Of a DNA stretch of 64,000 bases, positions 6,481-42,278 are shown piece by piece. A program made the position numbers and the translations under genes. Position 1 is the stretch's first letter; each line of letters starts with the position of its first letter. The stretch comes from Mobula hypostoma. Its lineage: Eukaryota. The DNA lies in assembly GCF_963921235.1 (NCBI RefSeq), contig NC_086107.1:94552001-94616000 (forward strand), read 5' to 3'. The notes beneath the pieces were generated by a model. It did no database searches, was not told where the DNA came from, and saw only the letters and a list, made by a program, of their open reading frames with translations.

Positions 6481-6924
6481 AACACATTTTTTTTAAAACA
6501 CATTTCCAATGCAAGAAACTCTTTACCTCTAAGCCAGCTCAGGAATATACAATTGTAACGAGACCATAAGACATAGAAGCTAAATTAGGCCTGTAAAATC
6601 ACCATACTGCTTTTGTGCTGAAAATCACTCTTACTTGCAACCTCAGTGAAATTACTTCTGCAGGATTTCTATGTTCCTGTGGCTTCAAAGTGATTTTTGA
6701 ATAGGTGGAATGGAATAGTTTTGGTTCATCATTGTCACATGAACCACGATACAGTGAGAAGATTCTCTTGCATACCGTTCATACAGATCAGATCACTACA
6801 CAGTTCACCAAGCTAGAGAAAGGTAAAACAATTACCAGAATGCAGAATAAAGTATAACAGCAGTGCAGGGCAACAATAAAGAAAGATTTGCTTTATAGAA
6901 ACACAAAGTGAAATGCATTAACAA

Positions 6925-7100
6925 GAGAAAACCCTCAGACGCTGGAAATCTGAGCAACACACACAAACTGCTGGAGGAACTCAGCAGGCCAGGCAGCATC
7001 TATGGAAAAGAGTACAGGGTCTCGGCCTGAAACATCAACTGTACTTTTTTTTTACATAGATGCCGCCTGGGCTGCTGAGTTCCTCCAGCATTTTGCGTGC
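6925..7100. repeat. Fold-back (inverted) PLE terminal repeat
   Basis: About 6958-7018 is the reverse complement of about 7039-7099. Confidence 0.8.
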
Positions 7101-8930: not shown

Positions 8931-10079
8931 CGTAACAAATAAATAACACAGAGTCCTTTGAAGTGAGTTTACAGGTTGTGGAATCAGTACAGTGTTGAGG
9001 TGAGTGATGTTCTCCACACTGGTTCAGGAGCCTGTCGGTTAAAAGGCAATAACTACTGCTGAACCTAGTAGTGTGGGATCCTGCACCTTCTTTCTGAAGG
9101 CAACAGCGAGGAGAGACGATGGCCTAGATGGTGGAGGTCCTTTAAGATGGACGCTGCTTTCTTGTGGCAGTGCTCCTTGCGGGAGTGCTCAATGGTGGGG
9201 AGGGCTTTGCCTGTGATGGACTGGGCTGTATCCACCATTTATGCAGCTCCCCTCTGAGAACTTTGATTGATCCTGCCTTCACTATTCCCCACTGCAGATT
9301 CTATCCACCAGGCATGTCAAGAAGTTTTCTTTTCAAACTATCACCTCAGGTTCAGATTCATTTATTTATCACACGTACCTCAAAGCTGGAGGTTGGAGGC
9401 CTGATGTCTGAGAGCCTTGGGCCAAGGACTGGGTGATGGGAGGCCTGGAGACACCCTGTCCTAAGGACGTACCCCAAGGACGTGCTGAGGGCAACCCATG
9501 GAGTCACCAAACAGCATCAATTTAGTAAGCCCACCATGTTCTGCAGAACAACACAAACAGCAACAACAACAACAGGTAAACAAGCTTCTTCCCCACCCTC
9601 CCCACTCACAGTCAGGCCTCTAACCCTGGTACAGGGTGCCTCTGGGCCTCCAGCTTCCAGTCCCTGGCCCGGACCTGTTGAGCTCCACTTCAACCTTTGT
9701 GCCTTGACCTCCGGACTTGCTGACATGATGGGTGGGGAGGAACCAGCCCTTCTACATTTGGTAAATGTCATTATAAGACGTATTAGTGGAGGTAAATCTG
9801 GCTAGGGACTTATCAGTGCACGGAAAATGCTGGAAGAACTCAAGCATCACCTATGGAGAGAAATAAACACTCGACGTTTCGAGCCAAGACCCTGTATCAG
9901 GACTGGAAAGGAGGGGAACGGAAGCCAATTGCCTTCATTCTCGCTGGTTCTTGATAAATCCATCAATGGGAACATCTTTCTTCTATCAGCTCCGTCTCTG
10001 TCCCTGCATGGCTTCAACTACCTTTAATCAAGCCACCTAAATTATGACTGGAGGAGAGAATTGCCTGTGACCATCAGAA

Positions 10080-10600
10080 GAAACACCTGTCAGTCCATGG
10101 CCTCCTTTACTGCTATGAAGAGGCCACCCTCAGGCTGGAAGAGTAACACCTCATATTCCTCCAACCTGATGACATGAGGGTAAATTTCTCGAACTTCCGG
10201 TTATTCCTTCTCTTTCCCACTTCTCTCTTTTTTCCAGTCAAAGGACTGGTTTCCCTCTCAGTCCTTCTCTCCTCCTCACCTGCCCATCACCTCCCACTGG
10301 TTTCCCTGCCCCTTCCTTTTCTATGCTCCACTATCCACTCCTGTCAGATTCCTTCTTCTTCTGCCCTTTACCTCTTCCACCTGTCTCCTCCCAGCTTCTT
10401 ACTTCACCCTTCCTCCCCCCACCCACCCAGCTTCCCCCTCACCTGCCACCTTGTACTCTTCCCCTCCTCCTACCATCTTACTCTGGCTCCTTCCCCCAGT
10501 CCTGATGAAGCGTCTCGGCTGAAACTTCAGCTGTTCATTCCCCCTCCACGGATGCTGTCTGACCTGCCGAGTTCCTTCAGCATCTTGTGGGGGTTGCATG
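10080..10600 (+). mobile_element. PLE 3' fragment
   Basis: EATLRLEE remnant, pyrimidine tract and a decayed hammerhead motif at about 10497-10533. Confidence 0.75.
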
Positions 10601-11167
10601 ACGATTCTTCGCCTTCCTTGACTCGGAGCTGCTGAGAATCAGTGCTAAGATGCCCAGGTCAGGCAGAGTTCACAAGCATTACACAATGAATGGTTTCTGT
10701 TCACAATGTTTGTCAGGCGCTTTGTGCACAGGACTCTCAGGACCAGCAAGAACAGGGGATTTTTTTTTTTCTTCTCACCTCATAGACCACATAGAACCAG
10801 TTCAGAGAAGGAGGTGAGTTTCATCCCAGTAGGCGGCTTGCCTTCCATATTTGAAGCTTTATTTGAATGGATCTTCTTGTGCCCAAGTCATACCCTGATT
10901 ATACACAATGCATCTCTGGACAATGCCCCATCAGCAAACAGCTGGGAAAACTGATTGAAAGCATAGACACAAGTTAACCATCATTTAACCTGTGCGTAAA
11001 CCATCACCCCAACATTAACCAGAAAGCAAAATTAATTGAAATGAAAGAACAACTGATATTGGTTAAACAGCATGGGACAACGTGAGAACAACAGGATTGA
11101 GTTGATGAAGATCAAAGTGACATTTCACTTTGTTGCAGCCAGTTGCAGAACGGAGAACCCTCCACAT

Positions 11168-11760
11168 TCATAAGCCATAGGAGCTGAATTAGGCCTTTCA
11201 GCCCATCATGTCTGCTCTATCATTCGATCATGGCTGACTTATGGTGCCTCTCAACCCCATTCACCTGCCTTCTCCCCCGCAACCTTTTTCACCCTTGTTA
11301 TTCAAGAACCTGTCAACATCCACTTTAAATACCCAATGACTTGGCCTCCACAGTCGTCTGTGGTAATGAATTCCACAGACTCACCACCTTCTGGCTAAAG
11401 AAATTCCCCTTCATCTCCATTCTAAGTCAATGTCCCTCTATTCTGAGGCAGTGCACTTTGATCCTAGACTCTCCCACCATAGGAAACATCCTCTCCACAT
11501 CCACTCTATCTAGGCCTTTCAATATGCGATAGATTTCAGTAAGATTCTCTCTCTCATTCTTCTAAACTCCAATGAGTACAGGCCCAGAGTCATTAAACAC
11601 ACTTATACATTAACCCTTTCGTTCCTGGGATTATTCTTGTAAACCCTCCACCTGGACACTAATGCCAACATATTCTTTCTTAAATATGCGGTCCTAAACG
11701 TCTCACAATACTCCAAATACAGTCTGACTAATGCCTTATAAAGTCGTAGCATTACATAAG
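11168..11760 (-). mobile_element. CR1 LINE 3' fragment
   Basis: Minus strand encodes decayed LVR.YLEYC and FFSQKVVSLWNSLP motifs plus a CR1 3' UTR. Confidence 0.85.
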
Positions 11761-12194
11761 ACCATAGGACTAGTTACCCTTGAATGGTCAAACAAAATAC
11801 ACAGGGCAAGAGAATTTTTTTAAAAACCCTTTTTGTTGCGTCCACTGTTTTTTTTAATTCAACGGTTGACAAAATCTGCAGGCTACTGATGATGCAGGGG
11901 AGGGAGGAGAGAAGATCTGCTCCTGGCCTCATGTAAACAGGAAATAAACACAGCACTCCCCTCACTCACCTACATTTACAATGCATCATCTAAACAGGAT
12001 CACTCCCACACAGCACTCCCCTGCCCATGTTCAATGCCATTGAACTTCAGACCCCATTAAATCACTAACCACGCGTCCTTACCAGCCTGTGTATGAATTA
12101 CGTGAAGTTTATTCGTTGGATTTCCATCCCTTTATAACTTTTTTTCCTCCTCTCTCTCTCTTCCCCTCTCCAGCAGCTTTGACAACTTCAGGGG

Positions 12195-12545
12195 CACTCC
12201 CACGCAACCTAACGCAGCGCTGGCCGGAGCCCCGCCTTTCCGCAGATGCTTCCGGATTCCCATTGGCTTAGTTTCCCCCAAATCTCTCCTTTTACTGGTT
12301 GATCATCGCGTCTATCAGCGCTGCGCCAGCAAGCTAGGTTGAGGGCAGCCAGAAACCACTTCCGGCGGAAGGCGGCGGTGTTATGTAATTTGTTTCAAAC
12401 AGTTGTATTTATTTAACGTGTATTTACGGAACAAGAGGTAAGAAAAAATTGAATTCGATATTTATAAGTACTTTATGCCAATTAATACGCGCTGACTGAT
12501 CTTTGCCCCTCTGTGGGTTGCGGCATTTGGCGCCATCTTTGTGAG
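12195..12545. promoter_or_regulatory. CpG-rich housekeeping-type promoter, possibly bidirectional
   Basis: Local CpG enrichment; GC box 12230-12237; ATTGG 12262-12266; paired ETS sites CACTTCCGG/CGGAAG 12357-12371; TTTGGCGC 12526-12533 overlapping YY1-like CGCCATCTT 12531-12539. Outward-facing donors: GAG|GTAAGA (+, 12437|12438) and CTG|GTAAGG (-, 12083|12082). Confidence 0.75.
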
Positions 12546-13373
12546 GGGCATAATCCAGGCTATCAAGGGCTCAGATGGTTTAAATTTAATGCCATAAACA
12601 TGCATGCACTCGATATAAATACCATCAGATCATTTTTATAGCAGCACAGTACATTACAGACATAAATTAGTATAAACTTAACACAGATTATACATAGCTG
12701 AAAACCAGAAACATCACTAAACTCCCTCACCATCAGAATCAAGTGAAATATGTCATTAAATTTTGCAGCAGCAGTACATTGCAATGCAATACAATAAAAA
12801 GTGTGTCTTCAGGCTCCTGCATCTCCTCCTTGTTGGTAGCAATGAGAAGAGTCCTGAGTCCTGGCATGTCCTGGGTGGTGGAGGTCCTTAATGACGGATA
12901 CCCCATTTTGAAGGTATCCTCTTTTGAAGATGTCTTCGATGCTGGGGAGGCTAGTGGCCGTGATGGAACTGGCTTGAGTTTGCAACTTTCTGCAGCTTTG
13001 TCCTTTCCTCTATACCAAATGGTGATGCAACAAGATAGAATACACCCTTGGAGATTTTGGTGACTCCTCTAAGTCCTAATGAAACAGAGCCACTGGCATG
13101 TCTTCTTCATGATTCCATCAATGTGGTGGGCCCAGGATAGATCTTCAGAGGTGCTGACACCCAGGAACTTAAAACTGCTCACTGTTTCCAGGTGTTCCCT
13201 TGACTTTCCCTTTCTGACATCTACGATCACACTCCTTGGTCGTACTGACGTTGAGTGCAAGGTTGTTCTACCACTCAACCAGCTGACCTATCCCACTCCT
13301 GTACGCCTCCTCATCACCACCTGAAATTCTGCCAATAACGGTTGTGTCATCAGCAAGTTTATAGATTTCAGCT

Positions 13374-14027
13374 GTTGGAGGCTACCCAGACAGAATATAT
13401 GGTGTTGTTCCTCCAACCTGAGTGTGGCCTCATCATGACAGTGGAGGAGGCCATGGATGGACATATCAGAATGGGAATGGGAAGTGGAATTAAAATGGGT
13501 GGCCATTGGACGATCCCGCTTTTTCTAGTGGGTGCTCTGTGAAGCGGTCTCCCAATCTTCATCGAGTCTCACCAATATACAGGAGGCCACACCAGGAGCA
13601 CTGGACACATTATATGACCTCAACAGACTCTCAGGTGAAGTGTCACCTCACCTGGAAGGACTGTTTGAGGCCCCAAATGGTAGTGAGGGAGGAGGTGTAG
13701 GGGCAGGTGTAGCACTTGAAAGGATAAGTGCCAGGAGGGAGATCAGTGGGGAAGGACGAATGGACGAGGGAGCCATGTAGGGAGCGATCCCTGCGGAAAG
13801 CAGAAAGTTGGGGGGTGGGGAGGAAAAGATGTTCTTGGTGGTGGGATCCTGTTGGAGGTGATGGAAGTTGCAGAGAATTATGTGCTGGATGTGGAGGCTG
13901 GTGAGGTGGTAGGTGAGGACAAGAGGAACCCTATCCCTGGTAGGGTGACAGGAGGATGGGGTGAGGGCAGACATGCACAAAATGGAAGAGATGACATTGA
14001 GGGAAGCGTTGATGGTGGAAGAAGGAT
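13374..14027 (-). mobile_element. PLE ORF fragment (RT C-terminal linker plus GIY-YIG endonuclease)
   Basis: DRVPLVLTYH..HLQQDPTT (ORF 13648-13980), CS.CGLLYIGET, and ATHFNS..EATLRLEEQH (ORF 13288-13506). Confidence 0.85.
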
Positions 14028-14154
14028 CTCTTTTTGCACTATTTATCTTTCATATATTCTTATCATATTTTATAGTAACTTTTATGTTTTCACAAATTTG
14101 TGTTTTCCCATCATAAATTTCACAACACCTGCCAGTAATAATAAACCTGATTCA

Positions 14155-14790
14155 ATTTCAAGTTCCTGGGTGTCAAGATCTCTGAGGACCTCACCTGGAC
14201 ATAACATATCGATGCAGTTATAAAGAAGGCAAGACATCAGCTATATTTCATTAAGGGTTTGAGGAGATTTTGTTTGTCACCTAAAACACTTGAAAACGTG
14301 TATCATAGAGAGCATTCTGACAGGCTGCATAACTGTCTGGTACTGGGGGGGGGAGGGGCTACTGCACAGGACTGAAAGCTGCAGAAAGTTGTAAAATTAG
14401 TCTGATCCATCATGGGTACTAGCCTCTGTAGCACCCAAGACATCTTCAAGGTGCAGTGCTTCAGAAGGGCGGTGTCCATCAGCCAGGACATGCCCTCTTC
14501 TCATTATTACTGTCAGGAAGGAGGTACAGAAGCCTGAAGGCACACACTCAGCGATTCGGGAACAGCTTCTTCCCCTCTGCCATCCGATTCCTAAATGGAC
14601 ATTGAACCCATAAACACTACCTCTTTTTTTTTAATTATTTCTGTTTTTGCATTGCTTTTAATGTAACTATTTAATATACACTGACTATAATTGATTTATT
14701 TATTTTTTTTATAGTTATCACATATTGCATTGTACTGATGCCACTAAGTTAACAAATTTCACAACATATGCCGGTGATATTAAACCACTT
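14155..14790 (+). mobile_element. Rex1/Babar-like LINE 3' fragment
   Basis: Same sequence family as 2205-2880. Confidence 0.75.
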
Positions 14791-16421
14791 CAGAGATTTA
14801 TTACCTTGACTTGGATGAACTGAAGTTTGTCATTTTGCAGTGGCGGTACAGACCAAAGACATCAAGTAAGAATAAATTACAACAATATATAAAATAGTGA
14901 AGATAATAATAAGGAGGAATTGTTATGACAGAGGAGATATCAGATACTGGAACAACATACAAAGGGCTGAAGGACTCAGTGGGTCAGGCAGCATCTGTGG
15001 AGGGAAATGCTCTTCACTCACATGCTGAATCTCCTTAAACCATTGAGAAAGTAGAAAATTATAAGCGCAAAAGATTATGCAGATGCTGGAGATCTTGAGC
15101 TACACACACATAAAATGCTGGAGGAATTCAACATCGGGAAGCATCTGTGCAGCTTTCTCCAACTTCTACTAATTCCTCACTCTCCCTCCTCCTCTCGTTT
15201 TCTATTCCTCATTCTGGTTACCCTCTCACTCCTTCTCTTCTCCTCACCTGTGGTTCCCCCTCCTCCCTCCCTTTCTTCCATGGTTCACTGCCTTCTTCAG
15301 CTCTTTCCGTCTTCACCTCCCCCTCCCCTCACCTGGTCCTATCTCTCACCTCCTCCACCTTCTTATTCCAGCTTCTTTCTCCTTCCTTCTCAGTCCTCAT
15401 GAAGGGTCACACATCCCAAAACAGCATCGTACTAACTGCTGCACTACTGTGGCTCTGCTGATAGTTTTGTTAATCTGCCACATTCAAGGGTTTTGTGCAC
15501 CGAGCACTTTGTATTAGGATTCCTTTTAAAATTACGTGATCTTTCCTGTTGTCTTATCTCACTAATGACTGTTGTTTCCCCATAACCATTCCCAATTCTT
15601 TTCATACCTATTCCCTTCTACAAAGTTTCCCTGTTCGTCCCACTTCGGAATGTATTTCAAACTTGTTATATGGGTGGCACCTTCTGGTTCCATGACAGAT
15701 CGTTGACCTAAAACACGAACTCTTAATCTCTTTCCACAGATTGCTTGACACAGAACACCACAGCAAAGGACCTTTTAACCTACTTTAAGATATACCTAAC
15801 CCTTCCCTTCCACCTAGCCCTCCATTTTTCCTTCAGCCATACGCTGATCTAAGAGTCTCTTAAAATGTTCATCTTGTATCCACATCTACCACCACTCCTG
15901 CCAGCGTGTTCCACACTTGGCCTTTAAAAAACCTCTTACAACTCACCCACCCCCTACTTTCCTCCAATCACCTTAAAATTAGCCATTTCAACCCTGGGAG
16001 AAAGACACTGGCTGTCCATTCTAGTTACATCTCTTAACATCTTGTACACCTCTATCAAGTCACCTCTCATCCTCCTTCGCTCCAAAGAAAAGCCCTAGTT
16101 CACTCAACCTTTCCTCATAAGACATGCTCTCTAATCCAGGCAGCATCCTGATAAATCTCCTCTGCACCCTCTCTAAAGTTTCCATGTTTTCCTATAATGA
16201 GGTGACCAGAACCGAACTCCAAGTGTGGTCTAATCAGTGTTTTATAGAGCGGCAACATTATCTTGAGGCACTGGAACTCAATCCCCCAACTAATGAAGGC
16301 CAACACACTATATTCTTAACCAAGCTATCAACTTGCGTGGCAACTTTGAGGGATTTATGGCTGTGGATCCCAAAAACCCTGTTTCCCTCAACACTGCTAA
16401 GAATCCTGCCATCAACCCTGT

Positions 16422-16909
16422 CAGTCAGTTCAGAGGGTGCCGTCCCGAATCCAGGGTTGGTGGCTATGCACCTCCATCTTCTTCGATCTTGCGACAGCAC
16501 CGAGTACAGCCTCTCCTCCAGTTTGTTCTCACTGGCCGTCTTGGCACCGACTACCGCCGCCCCCGCCGAACTCGAGCCCGAGGCTGTGTTGGCCTCCAGC
16601 CGCGGCCACTTCTTCGAGCTCGGCCCTTCCTTAGGTACACGGTGCAGCACCCAAGTTCATCACGTCTCTTCTAACTCGGTGCATAGCATACAATTCGTAG
16701 ATACGTGGTGAGGCTTTAATCTCTTCTACGGAAGATGGCCGTTGGCTCACAAGGTGCTCATCCGCCCTTTATCAGGTCTTGTTTTTTTATTTCAGTCCTG
16801 CTGGGTGTCCTCACACCCTCCTCAACAGACTAAGTCCAGTGGGGGAACCGGCCCAAGTCGCCGACCACTCGACCACAGCCCTCAGCCGAGCACCCGCCCC
16901 CCGCCGAAT
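16422..16909 (-). mobile_element. Chimeric RTE-type non-autonomous retro-insertion carrying a host exon fragment
   Basis: Perfect 13-bp TSD ccatcaaccctgt at 16409-16421 and 16910-16922. The 3' end encodes QDRRRWR and ends in tgaactgactg. The 5' part shares ggcggatgag..gtgag..ccaa.ggcca with the RTE-like element at 61040-61570. Confidence 0.85.
16494..16632 (-). pseudogene. ZFTRAF1: Captured fragment of a ZFTRAF1/CYHR1-like N-terminal coding exon
   Basis: Translates to KEGPSSKKWPRLEANTASGSSSAGAAVVGAKTASENKLEERLYSVL. This matches the recalled vertebrate ZFTRAF1 pattern PPKKRLR..(Ala/Gly linker)..GKLEERLYSVLCC. CpG-rich, as expected for a first exon. Confidence 0.75.
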
Positions 16910-17154
16910 CCATCAACCCTGTATTCTACCTTCAAATTTGACCTTCCAAGGGAATCACTTCATTTTTATAAACTGTACTCCGTCTGCCACTTCTTGGCCC
17001 AGCTCTGCATCCTGTCAATGCCCCATATTAACCTACAACAACCTTCAACACAACCCTCAACAGAAGCAACTTTTGTATCATCTGCAAACATACAAGCTCT
17101 AATTTTGAACACTTTGTAGTTTTCTGTCCATCTAGTCGAATAATACATTGTACT

Positions 17155-18130
17155 AGAGATGTAAGAGACTGCAGATGCTGAAATCTGGAGCAACACACAA
17201 AATGCTGGAGGAACTCAGCAGGTCAGGCAGCATCTGTAGAAGGAAATGGACAGTCAATGTTTCAGGTCGAGACCTTTCATCCAGATTCCAAGATAAAGGG
17301 GGGATAAGGAATATAAAGAGGTGGAGGAGAGGAATTACAAACAAGGGAAAATCTGCAGATGCTGGAAATCTGAGCAACACACACAAAATGCTGGAGGAAC
17401 ACAACAGGCCAGGCAGCATCTATGGAAAAGAAGTATAATCGATGTTTCGGGCTGAAACCCTTCGGCAGGACTGGAGAAAAATAGCTAAGCAGTAGACTTA
17501 AAAGGTAGGGGGAGGGGAGAGAGAAACACAAGGTGATAGGTGAAGCTTGGAAGGGAGGGACCATGAAGAGCTGGGAGGGTGATTGGTGAAAGAGATACAG
17601 GGCTGGAGAAGGGGGAGTCTGATAGAAGAGGACAGAAGGCCATGGAAGAAAGGATGGGGGAGAAGCACCAGAGGGAGGCAATGGGTGGGAAAGGAGATAA
17701 AGTGAGAGAGGGAAAAGGGGATGGGGAATGGTGAGGGGGAGGGGGGCATTACCAGAAATTTAAGTAATCAGTGTTCATGCCATCAGGTTGGAGGCAACCC
17801 AGACGGAATATAAGGTGATGTTCCTCCAACCTGAGTGTGGCCTCATCGCAACAGGAGTAAATCTACTCCTCAGCTCTTTTTCTCCAGCTGAAGGGTTTCG
17901 GCCTGAAACATTGACTATTTTTTTTTCCATAGACGTTGCCTGGCCTGCTGAGTTCCTCCAGCATTTTGTGTGTGTTTGGGAGGAAAGGAGCTGGCAGGTG
18001 ATGGGTAGATCCAGGTGGGGAGGGATGATAGGCAGATAGAGGGGGAGAGTGGGATTTGCAATAGGTGGGCTGACAAATGGTGGAGTTGAATGGACAGGAA
18101 GTTGGAGCTGTGGGCAGATGAGACCCAGTG
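17155..18130. mobile_element. Cluster of PLE terminal repeats in mixed orientation
   Basis: Three copies of the gatgctgcctg..gagttcctccagcattttgtgtg terminus plus an EATLRLEEH remnant. Confidence 0.8.
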
Positions 18131-27589: not shown

Positions 27590-28585
27590 TAATTCCATAA
27601 GAGATAGGAGCAGAATTTGGCCCATCAAATTTGCTCCGCCATTCCATCATTGTTGATTCATTATTCCTCTCAACCCCATTCTCCTGCCTTCTCCCCTTAT
27701 TAATCAAGAACCTATCAAACTCTGCTTTAAATATAGAATGACTTGACCTCCCTCCTTGGAGGGAGGAGAAGATGACAACAGTGCGCGCAGCTCTCCGGCG
27801 AAATGATATCGTATTTGTAAGTAGGATGCCGTGCACAATTCTGATTTGATGGAGACAGACGTGAGACGGCACAGAGGAACATCTGGAGAAATTTCTGAAA
27901 TGCCTGGTTCGCTGCTGCTGCTACTGTGTGATCAAGAATCTCCACAGGGAAGTCCCCAAAATCCCCAGCTTTGCCTACTGCTGGCAACCGAGGCTGGGGT
28001 CGAAGCATTTGGCAGAGATGGTGCTCGGTACTCGGTGTCGGAGGACTGATCGGAGCTTGAAGCTTTCGGATGACTCAGGATTGGACTGTGGTCGGGCACG
28101 ACCAGGAGAGTTTTCTTCCTTCTCCTGTCTGCATGAGATGTGGGACTTTCGGGAGACTTTGAACTTTTTTACTGTGCCCATGGCCTGTCCTTCATCAAGT
28201 TATGGTATTGTTGCACTGTTGTAACTATATGTTATAATTATGTGGTTTTTGTTAGTTTTTCAGTCTTGGTCTGTCCTGTGTTTCTGTGAGATCACACCGG
28301 AGGAATATTGTATCATTTCTTAATGGATGCATTACTAAATGACAATAAAAGAGGACTGTGTGTCCTCATAATCTAATCTAATCTGTGGCAACTAATTCCA
28401 CAGATTCACCACTCTCTGGTTAAATAAATTCATCCTCATCTCTGTTCTAAAGAGACATCTTTCTATTCTGAGGCTGTGCCCTTGGGTCCTAGACTCTCCC
28501 ACTATTGGAAACATCCTCTCCACGTCCACTCTGTCTAGGCCTTTCAATATTTGGTAGGTTTCAATTAGATATTCCCTCATTCTTG
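27590..28585 (-). mobile_element. CR1 3' fragment interrupted by a SINE-like element
   Basis: ORF 28392-28580 has LIETYQILKGLDRVD..QRVVNLWN and continues at about 27755-27590. Confidence 0.8.
27758..28384 (+). mobile_element. Unclassified non-autonomous retroelement with (aatct)n tail
   Basis: CpG-retaining sequence of about 625 bp that splits a CR1. It ends in gacaataaaag..aatctaatctaatct. No clean TSD. Confidence 0.65.
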
Positions 28586-29081
28586 TAAACAGTCCCAGTG
28601 GCTGGTCTTCACTGCCCCAGAGAGTTGTGGAAGCTGCTTCACTGGGGATAATAAATAGGAAATAGATCTGTTTTGGAAAGTTCAGAGAACTGAGGGTGAT
28701 AGGGAAGTGACTCAGAGGAGGAGAGGAGATTCAATTCCTAGGCCCAAGCTGTTGATGCTATTGTGAAGAAGGGATGGGAGCAGCTGTACTTCATGAGGAG
28801 TTTGAGTTTTGGTATGTTCCCAAAAACCTGGGCAAATTTCCACGGATGTACAGTGGAGAGCATTCTGACTGATTACAATACCGTCTGGTATGGAGGGGCC
28901 ACTGCACAGGATCAGAACTATCAGCAGAAGGTAGTAAGCTCAGCAAACTCCATCAAGGGCTCTAGCCTCCTCACTGTCAAGCACTTTTTCAAATGATGAT
29001 GTCTCAAGAAGGTTGTAACACACTTTATTAAAGCATCAGTCTTCCCCAATCAGAAGCCTAGAAGAACCATGAGATCTGAGT

Positions 29082-29221
29082 GAATAAACTCTTCTCCAAC
29101 TTCTTTTTGGGTACAGGTATCATTTTTTACCGATGTTTTGATGACAGACTCTGCCATCTTCATCAAAACGTCGGTTAAAATCGATACCTGTACCCAGCTG
29201 GAAGCCCGAGAAGAGATTATT
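29082..29221. repeat. Inverted repeat from a second PLE-like family with decayed hammerhead core
   Basis: Arms tgggtacaggtatc..ccgatgttttgatga and tcatcaaaacgtcgg..gatacctgtaccca (core 29108-29196). Confidence 0.65.
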
Positions 29222-29269
29222 CGTCATACACAGTGGGAAAGCACTAGATCCTTTTTCATGAGGTCTGAA

Positions 29270-31345
29270 AACTGCTGAGAGTCCGATCAGCGGCACCCAA
29301 GTCTGGTGACCAAGAAAATCACAAGAGGTCCAGGTACGATCTCCAGAAAGCCATCTCATAGACAAAGTCACAATTCTGGACCAAACTTTAATCAACCAAG
29401 GAGTCTCGACAGTTGTGACAGGGCTTGAATAATGTCAGCTCTTATAAAGTTAAGTCTGCGGCGTAGGTGACAACAAGGCTTCACTCCCAGATGAGCTCAA
29501 TGCCTTCTACACTCACTTTGAACATCAAAACATGGAGGAACCATCACAGGCTCCAACATCCCCCCACCCCGCATGATTCTGTGACTTCAGTCTCTGAAGC
29601 CGATGTGTGAGCCACCTTCAAGGGGGTGAACCCACGAGAAGCATCCTGCCCAGGTGGGGTACCTGGCCAGATACTAAAGACCTGTGCTGATCAACTGGCT
29701 GGTTTCTTCATTGAGATATTTAACCTCTCACTTCAGCAGTGCGTGGTACCCAACTGCTTCAAACAGATTTCAATTATACCGGTGCCCAAGAACAGCATGG
29801 TGACCTGCCTCGATGACTATGGCCCAGTAACACTTAGATCCACAGTGGTGAAGTGTTTTCAGAGGTCAATGATGAAACACATCAACTCCTGCCTGAGAGT
29901 GACTTGGATCAGCTCCAATTTGCTTACCGAAGCAAAAGGTCCACAGCAAATGCCATCTCATTGGCTCTTCACTCAACCCTGGAACATCTGGACAACAAAG
30001 ATGTATACATCAGGATGCTCTTTATCGACTAGAGCTCAGCATTCCATACCATCACCCCCTCAAAGGTAACCAATAAGCTCCAAGACCTAGGCCTCAGTAC
30101 CTCCTTGTGCAATTGGATCCTGGATTTCCTCACTTGCAGACCCCAGTGAGTTTGAATTGACAGCAACATCTCCTCCACAATCTCCATCAGCGCAGGTGAA
30201 CCACGAGGCTGTGTGCTTCGTCCCCTGCTCTACTCACTTTACACTTATGACTGAGTGGCTAAGCACAGCTCCATTGACATATTCAAGTTTGCTGATGGGC
30301 ACCACTGCCATAGGCTGAATCAAAGGTGGTGATGAATCAACATTTAGGAGTGGGACTGAAAATCTGGCTGAGTGGTGCCACAACAGCAACCTCTCACTCA
30401 GTGTCAGCAAGACCAAGGAGATGATTATAACTTCAGGAAAAGGAAACTAGAGGTCCATGAGCCAGTCCTCACCAGAGGATCACAGGTGGAGAGGGTCAGC
30501 AACTTTAAAGTCCTCCATCTTATCAATTTGGAGGGCCTTTCCTGGGCCCAGCATTTAAGGGCAATTATGAAGAAAGCACAGCAGTGCTTCTACTTCATTA
30601 GGCATTTACAGAGATTCGGCGTGATAATTAAAACTTGTATGGATGTGTTGTGGAGAGTATATTGGCTGGCTGCATCACCGCCTGCTATGGAAACACCAAT
30701 GCCCTTGAACGGAAAATCCTACAAAAAGCAGTGGATCGTGTTTAAAGCCTTCCCAACCATTGAGCTCATCTATATGAAACACTGTTGCAGGAAAGCAGCA
30801 TCCATCATCAGGAACCCCCACCACCCAGGCCATGCTCTCTTCTCTCTGCTGCCATCAGGAAGAAGGTACAGGAGTCTCAGGACTCACACCAGTGGTGCAG
30901 GAACAGTTATTACCCCTCAATCATCAGGCTCTTGAACCAGTGTGGATAACTTCACTTGCCCCATCATTGAAATGTTCCCACAACCTATGTTCTCACTTTC
31001 AAGGACTCTTCATCTCATGTTTTTGATATTTATCGCTTATTTATTAATTATTATTATTTCTTCTTTTTGTTTCTGCACAGCTTGTTGTCTTCTGCCCTCT
31101 CAGGTTGAAGACTCTAGATGAGCAATCTTTCATTGATTCTGTTATGGTTATTATTCTATGGATCTATTAAGTATGCCCACAAGGAAATGAATCTCTGGGT
31201 TGTATATGATGACATATACACCATGGTCCTGGAGGAACGTTGTTTCGTTTTTACTGTGTACTGTACCAGCAGTTTATGGTCGAAATGACAATAAAAAGTG
31301 ACTTGACTTGACTTGATATATATACTCAGATATTAAATTTACTTT
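29270..31345 (+). mobile_element. Rex1/Babar-like LINE, decayed ORF2 (RT) and 3' UTR
   Basis: GVPGQILKTCADQLAGFFIEIFNLSL (ORF 29626-30069), an FKFAD motif, VERVSNFK; several frameshifts. Confidence 0.85.
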
Positions 31346-31815
31346 TAAACTTTTCTAAGAAAGACCATTAAGAAACCTCACCATTCAGAACATGCCCTCT
31401 TCTCATTCCTACATCAGGGAGGAGCTGGAAGACACACACTCAATGCTTCAGGAACAGCTTCTCACTCTCTGCCATCAGATTTCTGAAAAGTCCATGAACC
31501 CATGAACACTACCTCACTATTTTCTCTCTTTTTGTCTGACTTATTTTTATAGTTCTTGTTGCAACTTACAGGTTTTTTTTTTCACTGCACTGTTCTGCTG
31601 CCACAAAACAACAAATCTCATGGGACATATGAGTGATAGTAAACCTGATTCTGATTCTGTTTCTGTGATGAGGCCTGGATCAGGTCAGCCATGATCATAT
31701 TGAACAGAGGGATAGGTTTGAGGGGCCGAGTGGTCATCTCATACCTCTGTTTTCTTGTTCCAATGTAATAAGAACACATACTTGGAAGAGTCACATGCTG
31801 AACTAACATCACATA

Positions 31816-31867
31816 CAGTACTGTACCAAAGTCTTAGGTAGGGTGTCTAAGACTTTTGCACAGTATG
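31816..31867. mobile_element. Tiny Tc1/mariner-type MITE
   Basis: Imperfect TIRs cagtactgtaccaaagtcttag and ctaagacttttgcacagtatg, flanked by TA on both sides. Confidence 0.7.
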
Positions 31868-31869
31868 TA

Positions 31870-32315
31870 GGACCAGAATTAAGACACTTGGCCCACTGAG
31901 TCTGCTCTGTCATTCCATTATGGCTGACTTATTATCCATTTTCCTGCATTTCCCTGACTAATCAAGAAACTTTCAATCTTATTCTTAAATACAACCAATG
32001 ACTTGGCCTCCACAGCCGGCTGCGGCAATGAATTCCACTGATTCACCACCCTCTGGCTGAAGAAATTTCTCCTCATCTCCATTCTAAATGGATGGCCCTC
32101 TATTCTGAGGCTGTGGCTGTAGACTCCCCCACTGCAGGAGACATCCACTCTATCTTGGTCTTTCAACATTTGATGGGTTTCAATGAGATCTTCCTTCATT
32201 CTTCTAAATTTCAGAGGGTGAAGGCCCAGAGACATCAATCGCTCCTCATACAATAAGCCTTTCATTCCCAGAATCATTCTCGTGAACCTCCTCTGAACTG
32301 ACTCCAATGTCAGCA
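31870..32315 (-). mobile_element. CR1 LINE 3' fragment
   Basis: ORF 31918-32316: LESVQRRFTRMILG..FFSQRVVNQWNSLP. Confidence 0.85.
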
Positions 32316-32347
32316 AGCCGTTATGGATCCAGACAGAATGACTTCTA

Positions 32348-32700
32348 ATGGGTGGCAGGGTGAAGATACGTCTCTATCAAAGGCGGTCTAAGGCGCTGCT
32401 TCCCTCTGCTAGCCTGCAGGTCACCCTTAGGCAAGGTGTGGTACTTGCTTAGCCCCCTGATCAGGGTTATATGAAGCCATGGGAGCAGGTGGTGGATGGT
32501 TGTCTGAGCAACTGGTGCATATCACAACTCCTGGTTATGTAACCACTGATACCAGGCAGACAATCTCTGAAAAGAATTGATAATGGCTGGTGTCACCCGT
32601 CTTGAAAAGACACTGCCCAGAAGAAGGCAATGGCAAACCACTTCTGTAGAAAAATTTGCCAGGAATAATCTTGGCATGGCATATTATGAAGATGATGATG
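32348..32700 (+). mobile_element. RTE/BovB-type SINE, copy 1
   Basis: Ends in gaaggcaatggcaaaccact (Bov-A/BovB-like 3' motif) and a gat-repeat tail. A homologous copy lies at 34035-34415. Confidence 0.7.
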
Positions 32701-34034
32701 AAGCGAACATGCTGAGTTTCCTTAACCTCCTGACGAAGTAGCAGTGTTGGTTCTTGGTTAAAGGCAGAAAGAGGGTTAATGTTTCAGCTCTTTCAGAAGT
32801 TATTTTGCTGTTGAGAATGTGGTTTGAATGAACTTGGTGATGGTATTGTAAATAACATATCATTAAGCTATGAAAGATGGAAAACGTTACATTTACTTAA
32901 CCAATGTGAAACGCCCAGTAACTAATTTGTACCCCCTATCCTGGAAGAGAGCTTACCATAAAGCAAAAGAGAAAGTAAAACCCCAGGTTATTATAGCTTC
33001 AGTGCACAGACCTAGCAATTTGAGGTTACAAGCCAGGAAGGTCAAACAGATATCCATCTTAAGAATATAGATTATGTTTGACATGTTGGCTCAGCTGGTC
33101 CTAAGAGAGGTCAAGATGGACTCCAGCCATGGCAGTGCACTCGGTGATAGCGTATAGACCCTTACTGACCTTCAGATGAAGCATTTCTGTTTTTCTTTGT
33201 TGCCCATTCGAAATTTACCCTTGGGAAGCTGACAGAGTTAGAGAGTAAAACAGTAGGGAAACAAAGCCCTTCAGCCCAATTCATTCATGGTGACCGTCAA
33301 GGGTGTGGCCCTCTAAACCCCTCTTCTCTTAGATGGTTGAGGAGGTTTGGCTTGTCACTGACTACTCTAACAAGTTTCTACAAATGTACTGTTGAAAGTA
33401 TCCTGACTGGTTGTATCATGGCCTGGTAGAGTAATTCGAATGCGCAGGAATGTAAGAAGCGGCAGAGTAGTGGACTGTGCTCAATATATCACAGGAACAT
33501 CATCTCCCTACCATTGGTAATATCTGGATGAGGGTCCAGGCACCCATTGGTTAATGGTAGGGGTCCATGGCATAAAAAAGATTGGGAACCCCTGATCTAG
33601 AGGATGTGGGGCCTCAAGAAGGCAACATCCATAATCAAAGATCCCCACCAAAATTCAAGATTCAAAATTCAAGTTCATCATGTGTACAATGAAACATGCA
33701 TAGATTGCATTAACAACCAACACACCAAACAGTGTGATGGGGGCAGCCGGCAAGTGTCGCCACACAATCTGGCACCAAATAGCAAACCCACTATGCACAC
33801 AGCATGTCTCGCCTTCTGGGCCATGTTACCATCGGGCAAGAGCTACAGATGTCGCACACCACCAGGTTCAGGAACAGTTACTTCCCGTCAACCATTTGGT
33901 ATTGAACCAACAGTGACAACCCTGACCAGTACAGCTTAGCAACACTATGACCACCTTGCACTCAAATGGACTTCAATTTCTTCAACCTTCAATGTTAAAA
34001 GTAAATTTATTATCAAAGTATGTAAATGTTATTG

Positions 34035-34415
34035 GTGACAGGATGGAGATATGTCTCTACCAAAGGAAGTGTAAGACACTCCTTCCCTCCGTTATCCTGC
34101 AAGTCTGCAAGTCACCCTTAGGCAAGGTGTAGCACCTGCTTTGCTCCTTCCCCCCACCCCCGGATCAAGGTCAGATGAAGCCATAGGAACAGTGGTGGAT
34201 GGTCGTATGAGCAGCTGCGGCATATCAGAAATCCTGGTTATGCAACCACTGACACCAGATAGACAATCTCTGAAGAGTATTGATAATGACTAGGTAACCT
34301 GCCTTGTAAAGGCACTGTCAGAAGAAGGCAATGGCAAATCACTTCTGTAGAAAATTTTGCCAAGAACAATCATGGTCATGGAAAGATCAATATTTGCAAC
34401 ACAGCACATAATGAT
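34035..34415 (+). mobile_element. RTE/BovB-type SINE, copy 2
   Basis: Collinear with 32348-32700. Confidence 0.7.
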
Positions 34416-36913
34416 TGAACAATGTATATACTAACATATTATAATTCATGTAATCACAGGCATTTACAGAAAAACAGAAATACAATAGGATTTACGAAAA
34501 ACTATACATAAACAGGTAGTTAGGGGGACAGATAAGAGGTTCTGTGGAAGAGGTCTAAAATCCCGGATGGTCTGTTGCCTCCCTGGTGCCAAGGTCCGCG
34601 ATATCTCAGATCGAGTTCTCAGTATTCTCAAGAGGGAGGGTGAGCAGCCGGATGTCGTGGTCCATGTAGGCACCAATGATGTGGGTAGGAAGAGTGAGGA
34701 GGTCCTGAAAGGTGAGTTTAGGGAGTTAGGCGCCAAATTAAAGGACAAGACCTCCAGGATAGCAATCTCAGGATTGCTACCAGTACCACGTGCAGGCGGG
34801 TTTAGAAATAGTAAGATAGCGCCACGTGGCTGAAGACATGGTGCAGAAGGGAGGGCTTCAGATTTATAGATAATTGGGCAGTTTTCCAGGGAAGGTGGGA
34901 CCTGTTCCAGCAGGACGGTTTACATCTGAACTGGAGGGGGACAAATATTCCTGCAGGTAGGTTTGCTAGAGAGGCTCTAGTGGATTTAAGCTAGATACGA
35001 GGGGGGAGGGGAACCAGAGTGTAGGAACAGATGTAGGGGAGAAGGAAGAAAAATAAAATAGTAAAATTGTTTGCGCCGTTAGTGATAAATAGAGAGTAAG
35101 AGCTGGAAAATTTCTTAAATGCATTTATTTTAATGCTAGGAGCATTATAAGAAAGCTGGATGAGCTTAAAGCATGGATTGATACCTGGAAGTATGATGTG
35201 GTAGCTATTAGTGAAACATGGTTACAGGAGGGATGTGATTGGCAACTAAATATTCCTGGATTTAATTGCTTCAGGTGTGATAGAATCGGAGGGACAAGAG
35301 GGGGAGGTGTTGCATTGCTTGTCAGAGAAAATATTACAGCGGTGCTCTGGCAGGATAGATTAGAGGGCTCGTCTAGGGAGGCTATTTGGATGGAATTGAG
35401 GAATGGGAAAGGTGCAGTAACACTTATAGGGGTGTATTATAGACCACCAAATGGGGAGCGAGAATTGGAGGAGCAAATTTGTAAGGAGATAACAGATATT
35501 TGTAGTAAGCACAAGGTTGTGATTGTGGGAGATTTTAATTTTCCACACATAGACTGGGAAGCCCATACTGTAAAAGGTCTGGATAGTTTGGAGTTTGTAA
35601 AATATGTGCAGGATAGTTTTTTGCAGCAATACATAGAGGTTCCAACTAGAGAAGGGGCAGTGTTGGATCTCCTGTTCGGGAATGAGATAGGTCAGGTGAC
35701 GGAGGTATGTGTTGGGGAGTACTTCGGGTCCAGTGATCACAATGCTATTAGTTTCAATATAATTATGGAGAAGGATAGATCTGGACCCAGGTTGAGATTT
35801 TTGATTGGAGAAAGGCTAACTTTAAGGAGATGCGAAAGGATTTAGAAGGAGTGGATTGGGACAATTTGTTTTATGAGAAGAATGTAATAGAGAAATGGAG
35901 GTCATTTAAAGGTAAAATTTTGAGGGTACAGAATCTTTATGTTCCTGTTAGGTTGAAAGGAAAGGTTAAAGGTTTGAGAGAGCCATGGTTTTCAAGGGAT
36001 ATTTGAAACTTGGTTCGAAAAAAGAGAGATATTTACAATAAATATAGGCAGCTTGGAGTAAATGAGGTGCTCAAGGAATAAAAAGAATCTTAATAAAGAA
36101 ATTAGAAAAGCTAGAAGAAGATATGAGGTTACTTTGGCAAGTAAGGTGAAAATAAATCCCAAGGGTTTCTACAGTTATATAAATAGCAAAAAGATAGTGC
36201 GGGATAAAATTGGTCCCTCAGAGAATCAGAGTGGACAGCTATGTGTGGAGCCAAAAGAGATGGGTGAGATTCTGAACAATTTGTTTTCTTTGGTATTCAC
36301 GAAGGAGAAGGATATTGAATTGTGTAAGATAAGGGAAACAAGTAGGGAAGTTATGGAAACTATGATGATTAAAGTAGATGAAGTACTGGCGCTTTTAAGG
36401 AATATAAAAGTGGATAAGTCTCCGGGTCCTGACAGGATATTCCCTAGGACCTTGAGGGAAGTTAGTGTAGAAATAGCAGGGGCTCTGACAGAAATATTTC
36501 AAATGTCATTAGAAACGGAGATGGTGCCGGAGGATTGGCGTATTGCTCATGTTGTTCCATTGTTTAAAAAGGGTTCTAAGAGTAAACCTAGCAATTATCG
36601 GCCTGTGAGTTTGATGTCAGTGGTGGGTAAGTTGATGGAAAGTATTCTTAGAAATGGTATGTATAATTATCTGGATAGACAGGGTCTGATTAGGAACAGT
36701 CAACATGGATTTGTGTGTGGAAGGTCACGTTTGACAAATCTGATTGAATTTTTTGAAGAGGTTACTAGGAAAGTTGACGAGGGTAAAGCGATGGATGTTG
36801 TCTATATGGACTTCAGTAAGGCCTTTGACAAGGTTCCACACGGAAGGTTAGTTAGGAAGGTTCAATCATTAGGTATTAATATTGAAGTAGTAAAATGGAT
36901 TCAGCAGTGGCTG

Positions 36914-38999
36914 ACAATAGACAATAGACAATAGGTGCAGGAGTAGGCCATTCGGCCCCTCGAGTTAGCACTGCCATTCACTGTGATCATGGCTGATCAT
37001 CCACAATCAGTATCCAGTTCCTGCCTTATCCCCATAACCTTTGATTCCGCTATCTTTAAGAGCTCTATCCATCTCTTTCTTGAAAACATCCAGAGACTTG
37101 GCCTCCACAGCCTTCTGGGGCAGAGCATTCCATATATCCACCACTCTCTGGGTGAAAAAGTTTTTCCTCAACTCCGTTCTAAATGGCCTACCCCTTATTC
37201 TTAAACTGTGGCCTCTGGTTCTGGACTCACCCATCAGCTGGAACATGCTTCCTGGCTCCAGCGTGTTCAATCCCTTAATAGTCTTATATGTTTCAATAAG
37301 ATCCCCTCTCAGCCTTCTAAATTCCAGTGTATACAAGCCCAGTCGCTCCAATCTTTCAACATATGACAGTCCCCCCATCCCGGGAATTAACCTTGTGAAC
37401 CTACGCTGCACTCCCTCAATAGCAAGAATGTTGTTCCTCAAATTTGGAGACCAAAACTGCACACAGTACTCCAGGTGTGGTCTCACCAGGGCCCTGTACA
37501 GCTGCAGAAGGACCTCTTTGCTCCTATACTCAATTTCCCTTGTTATGAAGGCCAGCATGCCATTAGCTTTCTTCACTGCTGCTGTACCTGCATGCTTACT
37601 TTCAGTGACTGATGTACGAGAACACCTAGATCATGTTGTACTTCCCCTTTTCCTAACTTGACTCCATTTAGATAATAATCTGCCTTCCTGTTCTTACCAC
37701 CAAAGTGGATAACTTCACATTTATCCACATTAAGCTGCATCTGCCATGCATCCGCCCACTCACCCAGCCTGTTCAAGTCACCCTGCATTCTCATAACATC
37801 CTCCTCACATTTCACACTGCCACCCAGCTTTGTGTCATCTGCAAATTTGCTAATGTTACTTTTAATCCCTTCATCTAAATCATTAATGTATATTGTAAAC
37901 AGCTGCGGTCCCAGCACCGAACCCTGCGGTACCCCACTGGTCACCGCCTGCCATTCCAAAAGGGACCCGTTAATCGCTACTCTTTGTTTCCTGTCAGCCA
38001 GCCAATTTTCAATCCATGTCAGTACTCTGGCCCGAATACCACGTGCCCTAATTTTGCCCACTAATCTCCTATGTGGGACTTTATCAAAGGCTTTCTGAAA
38101 GTCCAGGTACACTACATACACTGGCTCTCCCTTGTTCATTTTCATAGTTACAACCTCAAAAAATTCAGAAAGATTAGTCAAGCACGATTTCCCCTTCATA
38201 AATCCATGCTGACTCGGACCTATCCTGTTCCTGCCATCCAAATGTGTCGTAATTTCATCTTTTATAATTGACTTCAACATCTTTCCCACCACTGACGTTA
38301 GGCTAACCGGTCTATAATTCACTGTTTTCTCTCTCTCTCCTTTCGTGAAAAGTGGGACAACATTAGCCACCCTCCAATCCATAGGAACTGATCCTGAATC
38401 TATAGAACATTGGAAAATGATTACCAATGCATCCACGATTTCTAAAGCCACCTCCGTAAGTACCCTGGTGTGCAGACCATCAGGTCCCGGGGACTTATCA
38501 GCCTTCAGACCCAACAGTCTATCCAACACCATTTCCCGCCTAATATAAATTTCCTTCAGTTCATCCATTACCCTAGGTCCTTTGGCCACTATTATATCTG
38601 GGAGATTGTTGTGTCTTCCCTAGTGAAGACAGATCCAAAGTACCTGTTCAACTCGTCTGCCATTTCCTTGTTCCCCATAATAAGTTCACCCTTTTCTGTC
38701 TTCAAGGGCCCAATTTTGGTCTTAACTATTTTTTTCCTTTTCACATATCTAAAGAAGCTTTTACTATCCTTCTTTATATTCTTGGCTAGTTTACCTTCGT
38801 ACCTCATTTTTTCTCCACTTATTACCTTTTTAGTTATCTTCTGTTGCTCTTTAAAAGTTTTCCAGTCCTCCAGCTTCCCACTCATCTTTGCTATGTTATA
38901 CTTCTTCTCTTTTATCTTTATACTGTCCTTTACTTCCCTTGTCAGCCACGGCCTCCCCTTACTCCCCTTAGGATCTTTCTTCCTCTTTGGAATGAACTT
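36914..38999 (-). mobile_element. 5'-truncated CR1 of a different subfamily, inserted antisense in the outer CR1
   Basis: ORFs 37573-38589 (FADD) and 37007-37576; (ctattgt)n tail at 36914-36934. The outer frame KWIQQWL|DGRRQR rejoins on removal. Confidence 0.95.
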
Positions 39000-39268
39000 T
39001 GGATGGGAGACGCCAGAGAGTAGTGGTGGATAACTGTTTGTCAGATTGGAGGCTGGTGACTAGTGGTGTGCCTCAGGGATCTGTACTGGGTCCAATGTTG
39101 TTTGTCATATACATTAATGATCTGGATGATGGGGTGGTAAATTGGATGAGTAAGTATGCAGATGATACTAAGATAGGTGGAATTGTGGATAATGAAGTAG
39201 GTTTTCAAAGCTTGCAGAGAGATTTAGACCAGTTAGAAGAGTGGGCTGAAAGATAGGTGCTACATTTT

Positions 39269-39597
39269 AAAACCGCAAACAACAGGAATTCTGCAGATGC
39301 TGGAAATTCAAGCAACACACATAAAAGTTGCTGGTGAGCGCAGCAGGCCAGGCAGCATCTCTAGGAAGAGGTGCAGTCGACGTTTCTCTCTCCTCTCGTA
39401 TCCCTTTTGCCTATCACCTGTTCAGCTCTTGGCTCCATCCCTCCCCCTCCTGTCTTCTATCATTTTGGATCTCCCCCTCCCCCTCCAACTTTCAAATCCC
39501 TTACTCCTTCAGTTAGTCCTGACGAAGGGTCTCGACCTGAAACCTCTTCCTAGAGATGCTGCCTGGCCTGCTGCGTTCACCAGCAACTTTTATGTGT
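39269..39597. mobile_element. Fold-back PLE terminal-repeat insertion in CR1
   Basis: Flanked by ggtgctacatttt (39256-39268) and ggtgcttcatttt (39598-39610). Internal inverted arms at about 39317-39371 and 39543-39597. Confidence 0.85.
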
Positions 39598-42050: not shown

Positions 42051-42243
42051 TCTACATAGATTTGCCACTGCCTTTGCTCTAATTGTGCATAATTTATGTT
42101 TAATTTTCATTTTCCTTGTGAACTCTGTGCCTGTGATGCGGCTGCAAGGAAGTTTTTCATTGCACCTGTGTGCACGTGGACTTGTGCAGATGCCAAATTA
42201 ACTTGACTTTGACTAAGATGAGCCAGCTTCAGACTCTTCAGTG

Positions 42244-42278
42244 AGTCCTGATGAAGGTTTTGACTTGAAACGTCGACT
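42244..42278 (+). ncRNA. Minimal type I hammerhead ribozyme motif, core intact (PLE-associated)
   Basis: agtc-CTGATGA-aggt(tttg)actt-GAAAC-GTC-gact. Stem I agtc/gact, 4-bp stem II, palindromic ACGT in place of a stem III loop, GUC cleavage triplet. Confidence 0.75.

Follow-up and report, generated by a model that had tools for sequence, protein, structure and literature searches.

A 488-bp block at 16422-16909 of the 64,000-nt stretch of Mobula hypostoma contig NC_086107.1 analysed here (positions 94,552,001 to 94,616,000; hereafter the window) is probably a genuine copy of a repeat family that carries a gene fragment and is mobilised by a long interspersed nuclear element (LINE); we regard this as the best explanation overall. 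Its 3′ 211 bp (16422-16632) would represent a high-copy, non-coding retroposon family of the cartilaginous-fish lineage, in which ZFTRAF1 (zinc finger TRAF-type-containing protein 1, also CYHR1) appears to have contributed an internal fragment, about 140 nt long, of its CpG-rich first coding exon, joined without a frame shift to a 3′ end of LINE type. This end seems to consist of the last codons of a LINE open reading frame (ORF) with a DR..WR motif, followed by (CTGA)n.

The ZFTRAF1 fragment

On the minus strand, a reading frame free of stop codons begins at 16656 and continues through the rest of the block. Codons 9-54 (16632-16495) read KEGPSSKKWPRLE...ENKLEERLYSVL, and codons 55-78 (16494-16423) continue without a stop as SQDRRRWR...SELT, so that the translation bears out the in-frame switch from KLEERLYSVL to SQDRRRWR proposed in the initial annotation of this DNA. 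Two in-frame stops lie immediately upstream of 16656; therefore, this copy is non-coding. When the longer proteins in a library of 5.8 billion were searched by word index, one of 408 candidates proved to be a match, ZFTRAF1 of Pristis pectinata (44 bits, E 8e-6). In the pairwise alignment with its residues 64-112, 31 of 49 positions were identical (composition-corrected E 1e-8), including the identical ENKLEERLYSVL run, and identical runs of 12 and 7 residues are properly spaced with respect to ZFTRAF1. Searching with the Pristis region provided 101 ZFTRAF1/CYHR1 proteins for comparison. The best 5 of these 101 against the element peptide were all chondrichthyan (Pristis, 69%; Scyliorhinus, 62%; two skates, 60% and 58%; Callorhinchus, 60%); lamprey and tetrapod proteins scored lower. 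The fragment looks closest to a ray-type ZFTRAF1 sequence. By sequence likeness, the sole Pristis match and the five chondrichthyan top scores establish the ZFTRAF1 origin that had been suggested for the middle segment.

The KLEERLYSVL motif is unchanged in 16 of 16 aligned ZFTRAF1 proteins, from lamprey to mammals, and the gene is thus the donor and the repeat the recipient. Transfer proceeded from host gene into element, not the reverse. A HMMER search with the 78-amino-acid frame against 1.84 billion representative proteins returned no match at E ≤ 0.001, which we attribute to the size of the library and to representatives with different N-termini; a word-indexed search among proteins of similar length gave one candidate and no match. 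An intact ZFTRAF1 gene or processed pseudogene was rejected, as the match covers only residues 64-112 of 407 plus a displaced six-residue piece, and no Pfam domain is present.

Copy number and the shared 3′ junction

Logan contigs of four public runs were aligned on 16250-17080 at a likeness of ≥85%: X1 (organism A), X5 (organism B), X9 (organism C) and X12 (organism A, guessed to be RNA). With the paralogues of the flanking LINE included, 5970, 5565, 4651 and 366 contigs were placed, respectively. The X1 contigs comprised 387 with a likeness of ≥99%, 1056 of 95-99%, 2522 of 90-95% and 2005 below 90%. Contigs over the ZFTRAF1 part, at least 95 of them in X1, were distinct from each other and 85-95% similar, and the same alternative letters recurred among the runs: at 16585, C instead of T in 95, 93, 81 and 7 contigs of X1, X5, X9 and X12, at 16590 another letter in 89, 87, 77 and 8, and at 16539 in 78, 87, 65 and 8. 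Summed depth exceeded that of a single-copy-looking bin thousands-fold (Table 1); read as an order of magnitude and not as an exact count, it corresponds to thousands of copies.

The junction between ZFTRAF1 part and tail (16494/16495) was bridged, with at least 31 nt on each side, by 8 of the 32 listed contigs: two from X12 (contigs 9 and 10), one from X5 (contig 18) and five from X9 (contigs 25-29), while one X1 piece was short by a single base. The same fragment/tail junction thus occurs in three organisms. The 827-nt X9 contig 25 covers 16435-16582, is unlike this copy to either side of it and is apparently another, 5′-truncated locus. The initial annotation had made a gene-fragment-carrying family conditional on the element being multi-copy, which holds for the ZFTRAF1/tail unit.

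A further X12 contig (contig 14; 407 nt, depth 77.6) matched only 16532-16631, with eight differences, and was unlike this locus over its remaining 304 nt. Its letter at 16587, which encodes Ser as in ZFTRAF1, is otherwise found only in a single X1 contig and a single X5 contig, both with a depth of about 8. This contig may be the host's own ZFTRAF1 exon 1.

Founder sequence and age

Family majority letters within the ZFTRAF1 part were translated codon by codon. They give N23D, V35A, V36G and T40A together with synonymous changes in codons 24 and 42; three of the four (V35A, V36G, T40A) give back the amino acid found in Pristis, and the fourth, N23D, introduces a similar one. The majority-corrected peptide contains a 20-residue run, ending in YSVL, that is the same as in Pristis. 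Since the majority letters shift the copy towards the gene, the founder was closer to ZFTRAF1 than this copy is. At least 19 of the 488 positions of this copy differ from the majority, which is a lower bound on its divergence. Six of the 19 differences restore a CpG singly, and 16552/16553 restore one only as a pair, suggesting that the block is rich in CpG because its source was and because it is only moderately old, rather than through protection from decay.

Insertion into an older LINE

The 13-mer ccatcaaccctgt at 16409-16421 is perfectly repeated at 16910-16922 (both strands of 16200-17150 were read), and the two copies form a target-site duplication (TSD). G+C makes up 58% of the enclosed block, whose CpG observed/expected ratio is 0.83, compared with 0.33 for the window and 0.32 and 0.17 for the two 1-kb flanks, in agreement with the CpG-rich, TSD-flanked insert described initially. 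Because a single pair of TSDs surrounds the whole block, all 488 bp arrived together. The block occurs once within the window. Paralogues with an empty site were also found: joints such as 16412->16919 appeared in one, three and one contigs of X1, X5 and X9, respectively, and 12 X12 contigs had a loose end at 16421 and continued like the sequence after 16922. These paralogous copies of the flanking repeat run across the site uninterrupted; therefore, the insertion is real. The unit is short and dispersed, flanked by 13-bp repeats here and by other sequence in its other copies.

The interrupted sequence, at 16261-16419 on the minus strand, resembles the LINE ORF at 39554-40309 (47% identity over 34 amino acids, E 8e-7); LINEs of the type of this ORF, with domains for endonuclease and reverse transcriptase, are present at several places in the window. 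Fragment and block have the same orientation. The ORF2 match and the paralogues crossing the site agree with the earlier proposal of an insertion into an older LINE; its type is presumably CR1-like. One X5 contig (contig 24), spanning 16852-17010 with 5 other letters and 7 gaps (about 97% alike, depth 6.8), reaches over the 5′ junction into flanking sequence like that of this locus, showing that organism B has the same insertion. The insertion at the 16910 junction is thus common to two differently labelled organisms.

Table 1. Coordinates of the insertion, its parts and its host sequence, and summed contig depth in run X1
Feature	Position	Strand	Basis or value
Insertion host, old LINE ORF2 fragment	16261..16419	(-)	Protein likeness to LINE ORF 39554-40309; high-copy in all runs
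TSD, left copy, 13 bp	16409..16421	no strand	Identical 13-mer at 16910-16922; one copy in paralogous uninterrupted flanks
3′ tail, 24 codons SQDRRRWR...SELT, CTGA-type terminal repeats, LINE-like	16422..16494	(-)	Translation; X1 depth; (TCAG)n loose ends
ZFTRAF1 (CYHR1) first-coding-exon fragment, 46 codons, in frame with tail	16495..16632	(-)	63-69% identity to Pristis ZFTRAF1 residues 64-112
CCTVYL, encoded by six codons of a different frame, immediately upstream of the fragment	16632..16649	(-)	tblastn, 5/6 identical, E 0.24
5′ segment, 277 bp	16633..16909	(-)	Core 16698-16837 a very abundant repeat (X1 depth)
TSD, right copy, 13 bp	16910..16922	no strand	Junction crossed by X5 contig 24 in organism B
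Summed depth X1	16446-16529		39,659-52,635
Summed depth X1	16530-16641		9,002-14,521
Summed depth X1	16642-16669		1,647
Summed depth X1	16698-16837		28,370-43,485
Summed depth X1	16902		about 100
Summed depth X1, looks single-copy	17062-17080		5.66

The LINE-like tail

The DNA of the block terminates in CTGAACTGACTG, directly adjoining the TSD. At 16430, 73 X5 contigs and 71 X9 contigs continue on the plus strand as (TCAG)n, beyond which they enter A+T-rich sequence that is unrelated, indicating that the family ends in (CTGA)n on the sense strand. No stop separates the frame of this copy from the terminal repeats; were (CTGA)n longer, as it is elsewhere in the family, a TGA within the repeat would close the frame. 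When all six frames were searched for DR..W[RKQ], three sites appeared in the window. The two others, on the plus strand at 837 and 17631, are in frames with many stops, which leaves the tail as the only LINE-type C-terminal match to this pattern in the window. The CR1-type LINE ORFs of the window have different ends without DR..WR, which points to another LINE type as the source of the tail. The motif, together with a frame open into CTGA-type repeats, gives the 3′ end a putatively RTE/BovB-like layout.

Summed depth is uniform across 16474-16529; thus, nearly every such tail in these genomes carries the ZFTRAF1 end. Two readings agree with this uniformity: a non-autonomous family of great success, or a LINE with the ZFTRAF1 piece as part of its own sequence. 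A hairpin predicted in the tail (-22.9 kcal/mol, z -0.84) is no evidence for a recognition stem, because 42 of 200 shuffles fold equally well; the predicted fold of the whole insert gave z -2.12, with 2 of 100 shuffles reaching it. Compared with the ESM Atlas, the tail peptide obtained best scores of 0.86-0.87 to unnamed clusters, under the lead threshold.

Breakpoints within the first coding exon

All 16 of 16 ZFTRAF1 sequences continue directly through YSVL-CCTVCLDLPKAS, where the element switches to its tail. Five isoforms (two mustelid/pangolin, three unnamed) diverge only after ...KASVYQ, placing the end of the first coding exon 15 codons beyond the 3′ breakpoint. On the 5′ side of the fragment, all five chondrichthyan proteins are continuous through ...LEEGPSSKK. 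Judged from these proteins, with the exon end given mostly by mammals, both breakpoints probably lie inside the first coding exon. The captured exon of the initial annotation is therefore retained as to its derivation from the first coding exon; the protein alignment makes it an internal fragment, not a whole exon. Splicing was rejected as the route of capture, since neither breakpoint coincides with the presumed exon end: an acquired piece ending at a splice donor, as in SVA_F1, was not found here, the break lying after YSVL and the exon end 15 codons further on. With both breakpoints intra-exonic, template switching or a juxtaposition at the DNA level is preferred over splicing.

ZFTRAF1 has CCTVCL right after YSVL; in this copy, CCTVYL precedes the start of the fragment, an order resembling a circular permutation. 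In tblastn, all five chondrichthyan queries matched this piece with 5 of 6 residues identical. By a rough estimate, such an adjacency would arise by chance about once in 1000 cases. At the nucleotide level, no internal repeat of the ZFTRAF1 part was found (77 of 500 shuffles reach the score).

The 5′ segment

Depth over the core of the 5′ segment (16698-16837) is 3-4 times that over the ZFTRAF1 part; therefore, the core mostly exists apart from that part. The 5′ 277 bp come from, or are shared with, a repeat that is even more abundant than the ZFTRAF1/tail unit. We lean towards the view that this segment was joined to a 5′-truncated ZFTRAF1/tail unit by a further template switch, either here or in a minor subfamily; that it represents the regular 5′ half of the family is a serious but less favoured possibility. 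This copy has no endonuclease or reverse-transcriptase ORF, and it may itself be 5′-truncated.

On the insert, Rfam at E ≤ 10 produced only a chance match to sR33 (12.5 bits), ARAGORN found no tRNA gene and Pfam no domain. A classical RNA polymerase III short interspersed nuclear element (SINE) was rejected, as neither ARAGORN nor Rfam detected a tRNA, 5S or 7SL head. The initial annotation had connected the 5′ segment with an RTE-type element through a motif at 61271-61303. The best local alignment of the segment with 60501-62000 had a score of 13, which 6 of 100 shuffles reached; the shared 10-mer is at chance level, and with no small-RNA head found either, the RTE-type 5′ end is not sustained.

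Proposed origin and alternative explanations

Taken as the product of a LINE-mobilised family, the 488-bp block would be one copy retroposed by target-primed reverse transcription. A LINE reverse transcriptase would have nicked the old LINE fragment, primed on the 3′ end of the element RNA and left the 13-bp TSD. The gene fragment would have been copied passively, adjoining a tail that the reverse transcriptase recognises. The founder could have arisen by template switching from a LINE-type RNA into ZFTRAF1 mRNA, or else by read-through of sequences juxtaposed at the DNA level, and the 5′ half may have been added by a further template switch. The enzyme, the template switching and the direction of reverse transcription are what we infer from the arrangement of the parts.

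Several observations weigh against this interpretation. For the tail, no LINE sharing it was found within the window, so its LINE origin is argued from the DR..WR motif and the terminal repeats. The breakpoints were placed via proteins and not to the base, and the CCTVYL piece upstream of the fragment (E 0.24 alone) fits neither simple model. Summed contig depth is not a copy number and was taken as an order of magnitude only. It is moreover uneven, with 30-50 thousand over tail and 5′ core vs about 10 thousand over the ZFTRAF1 part, and CpG density explains this only weakly (rho -0.39, p 0.11). Outside the four runs, a protein-guided scan of metagenome contigs confirmed none of 598 pattern stretches as a further DNA copy, exact 20-23-mers of the insert gave no hit in metagenome, prokaryote-genome and viral collections, and protein-level searches recovered no further copy sequence. 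Finally, the 16632/16633 junction was bridged by none of the 32 listed contigs, which is no proof of its absence because repeat contigs are short and even the source locus is not in one piece. Ten of the 32 listed pieces end at 16631-16635, where the likeness to ZFTRAF1 begins, and five of these ten continue for 16, 24, 45, 175 and 304 nt unlike this copy (X12 contigs 13 and 14; X9 contigs 26, 29 and 30); three listed pieces begin at 16638-16650. As contigs run on differently upstream, the three-part structure may not be a feature of the family.

The last point bears directly on the single three-part unit envisaged by the initial annotation, i.e., a fixed, SINE-like family with an RTE 5′ end, a ZFTRAF1 piece and an RTE 3′ end, of which this copy would be full-length. 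We consider this doubtful. It would be in line with the single TSD pair around all 488 bp, the multi-copy nature of all three parts and the existence of non-autonomous families built from RTE 5′ and 3′ ends (Bov-A2, MAR4, RTESINE1 and RTE1-N1_LA; PMC3747384, Table 1). However, the unbridged junction and the five contigs continuing differently upstream speak against it, as do the excess depth of the 5′ core, which must mostly occur without the ZFTRAF1 part, and the chance-level 10-mer as the stated link to RTE at the 5′ end. Depth is also only about 100 at 16902, and so few copies have this 5′ terminus.

A second possibility is that the 3′ 211 bp are the 5′-truncated end of a longer element, perhaps an autonomous LINE, whose ORF would have taken up the ZFTRAF1 piece in frame near its C terminus. 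This would account for the ZFTRAF1 piece being in frame with the tail codons, for the uniform depth by which almost all such tails carry the ZFTRAF1 end, and for the unlike sequence upstream of 16635 together with the X9 copy stopping at 16582, as expected of 5′-truncated copies; the piece also includes what is a basic, KKRAR-type stretch in the gene. We nevertheless regard it as unlikely: an in-frame join has a one-in-three chance of arising anyway, two stops lie just upstream in this copy, and no longer protein with this C terminus was present in the libraries searched, although the latter is a weak argument since these hold no copy of any length.

In the LINE-mobilised family favoured here, the gene fragment is a passenger. 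It seems rather improbable that the piece is not passive and instead acts as a host-derived basic stretch resembling a nuclear localisation signal, in frame in the C terminus of an autonomous partner LINE, or as a CpG-island promoter or anti-silencing sequence like the MAST2 exon in SVA_F1. If true, promoter or anti-silencing activity of CpG-island sequence would explain the success of the family; on either view, copies dispersed in both orientations could give rise to antisense or small RNAs matching ZFTRAF1 exon 1.

A chimera of LINE tail and ZFTRAF1 mRNA fragment that was retrocopied only once, at this locus, would agree with the single copy in the 64-kb window but is already refuted, unless the contigs are artefacts, by the many distinct, 85-95% similar contigs over the ZFTRAF1 part and by the junction bridged in three organisms; we give it next to no credence. 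The same holds for a likeness to ZFTRAF1 by chance or low complexity, or a gene that took the stretch from the repeat, since the richness of the region in Ala, Gly and Ser and the empty whole-library HMMER search are outweighed by the composition-corrected E value, the identical runs at the right spacing, the shift of the family majority letters towards the gene, and the invariance of KLEERLYSVL across vertebrates including lampreys, where the repeat is not known.

Comparison with known systems

DNA transposons are well known to capture coding sequence of their hosts; among retroelements lacking long terminal repeats (non-LTR), this is rare. Any RTE relation of either end of the present element is putative. 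The closest analogue appears to be SVA_F1, which carries exon 1 of MAST2 in human and has 84 copies; its chimpanzee counterpart pt_SVA_D6, with exon 1 of STK40, has 94 copies (PMC6139936). The acquired exons are reported there to have been spliced on, to be GC-rich and to be active as promoters. Both systems, like the one proposed here, are non-autonomous non-LTR retrotransposons that amplify with GC-rich sequence of a host first exon, but in SVA_F1 and pt_SVA_D6 the exon replaces the 5′ end and ends exactly at its splice donor, and amplification was with L1 and poly(A) (PMC6139936). In the present element, the two ends of the fragment are exon-internal and its neighbour is the 3′ tail, a specific LINE-like sequence with (CTGA)n; the contig counts suggest far more copies.

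Chimeric LINE-1 insertions (U6/L1 and mRNA/L1) are similar in that a LINE 3′ part and another RNA are flanked by TSDs, and they have been explained by template switching, ligation or trans-splicing (bioRxiv 10.1101/2025.02.02.635956). These are, as described there, mostly single insertions, whereas here the chimera became a prolific source. Bov-A2, MAR4, RTESINE1 and RTE1-N1_LA resemble the present family in being short, in lacking a small-RNA head and in using the LINE's own 3′ end; none of them is reported with a piece of host exon (PMC3747384). The same review lists the chondrichthyan SINEs HE1/V-SINE, SacSINE1 and SINE2-1_CM, which come from the same host group and likewise depend on a LINE tail but have tRNA heads and CR1-type tails (PMC3747384); in the element described here, no tRNA, 5S or 7SL part is detectable and the tail has the DR..WR motif. 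Our literature search found no description linking CYHR1 or ZFTRAF1 to a transposable element, though the family may already have a name in repeat databases.

The textbook non-LTR captures, SVA_F1 and pt_SVA_D6, have fewer than 100 copies, and the present family looks like thousands. If our interpretation is true, such captures can found major repeat families. The family would also provide a datable marker, as the fragment could be compared with the gene in each lineage. Furthermore, genomes would contain many near-copies of a conserved first exon, which might affect annotation, the mapping of reads and cross-talk at the RNA level.

Other repeats in the window

The region 59294-62744 contains several open frames of 138-238 amino acids on both strands without a Pfam match, including the stretch at 60774-61307 of the RTE-like element named by the initial annotation. 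A plus-strand LINE with endonuclease (35093-35845), reverse transcriptase (36062-36934) and C-terminal part (39554-40309) is apparently interrupted by a minus-strand LINE at 37007-38619. Two open frames, 2148-2711 and 30372-30935, match PF09004 (ALKBH8_N) with E 1.1e-8 and 2.2e-4, respectively. This profile also matches C-terminal parts of LINE ORF2, which would make both frames LINE remnants and not genes; the LVRP.LEYCVQFWSP stretch of these matches is present in LINE ORFs elsewhere in the window. In addition, a short, abundant repeat lies close to the insertion: a unit of about 100 bp within 17163-17978 recurs in about 20 other places with 75-95% identity and in both orientations, for instance at 6920-7011, 43120-43214, 55049-55165 and 60230-60329, and forms an inverted pair at 17376-17500 and 17858-17976.

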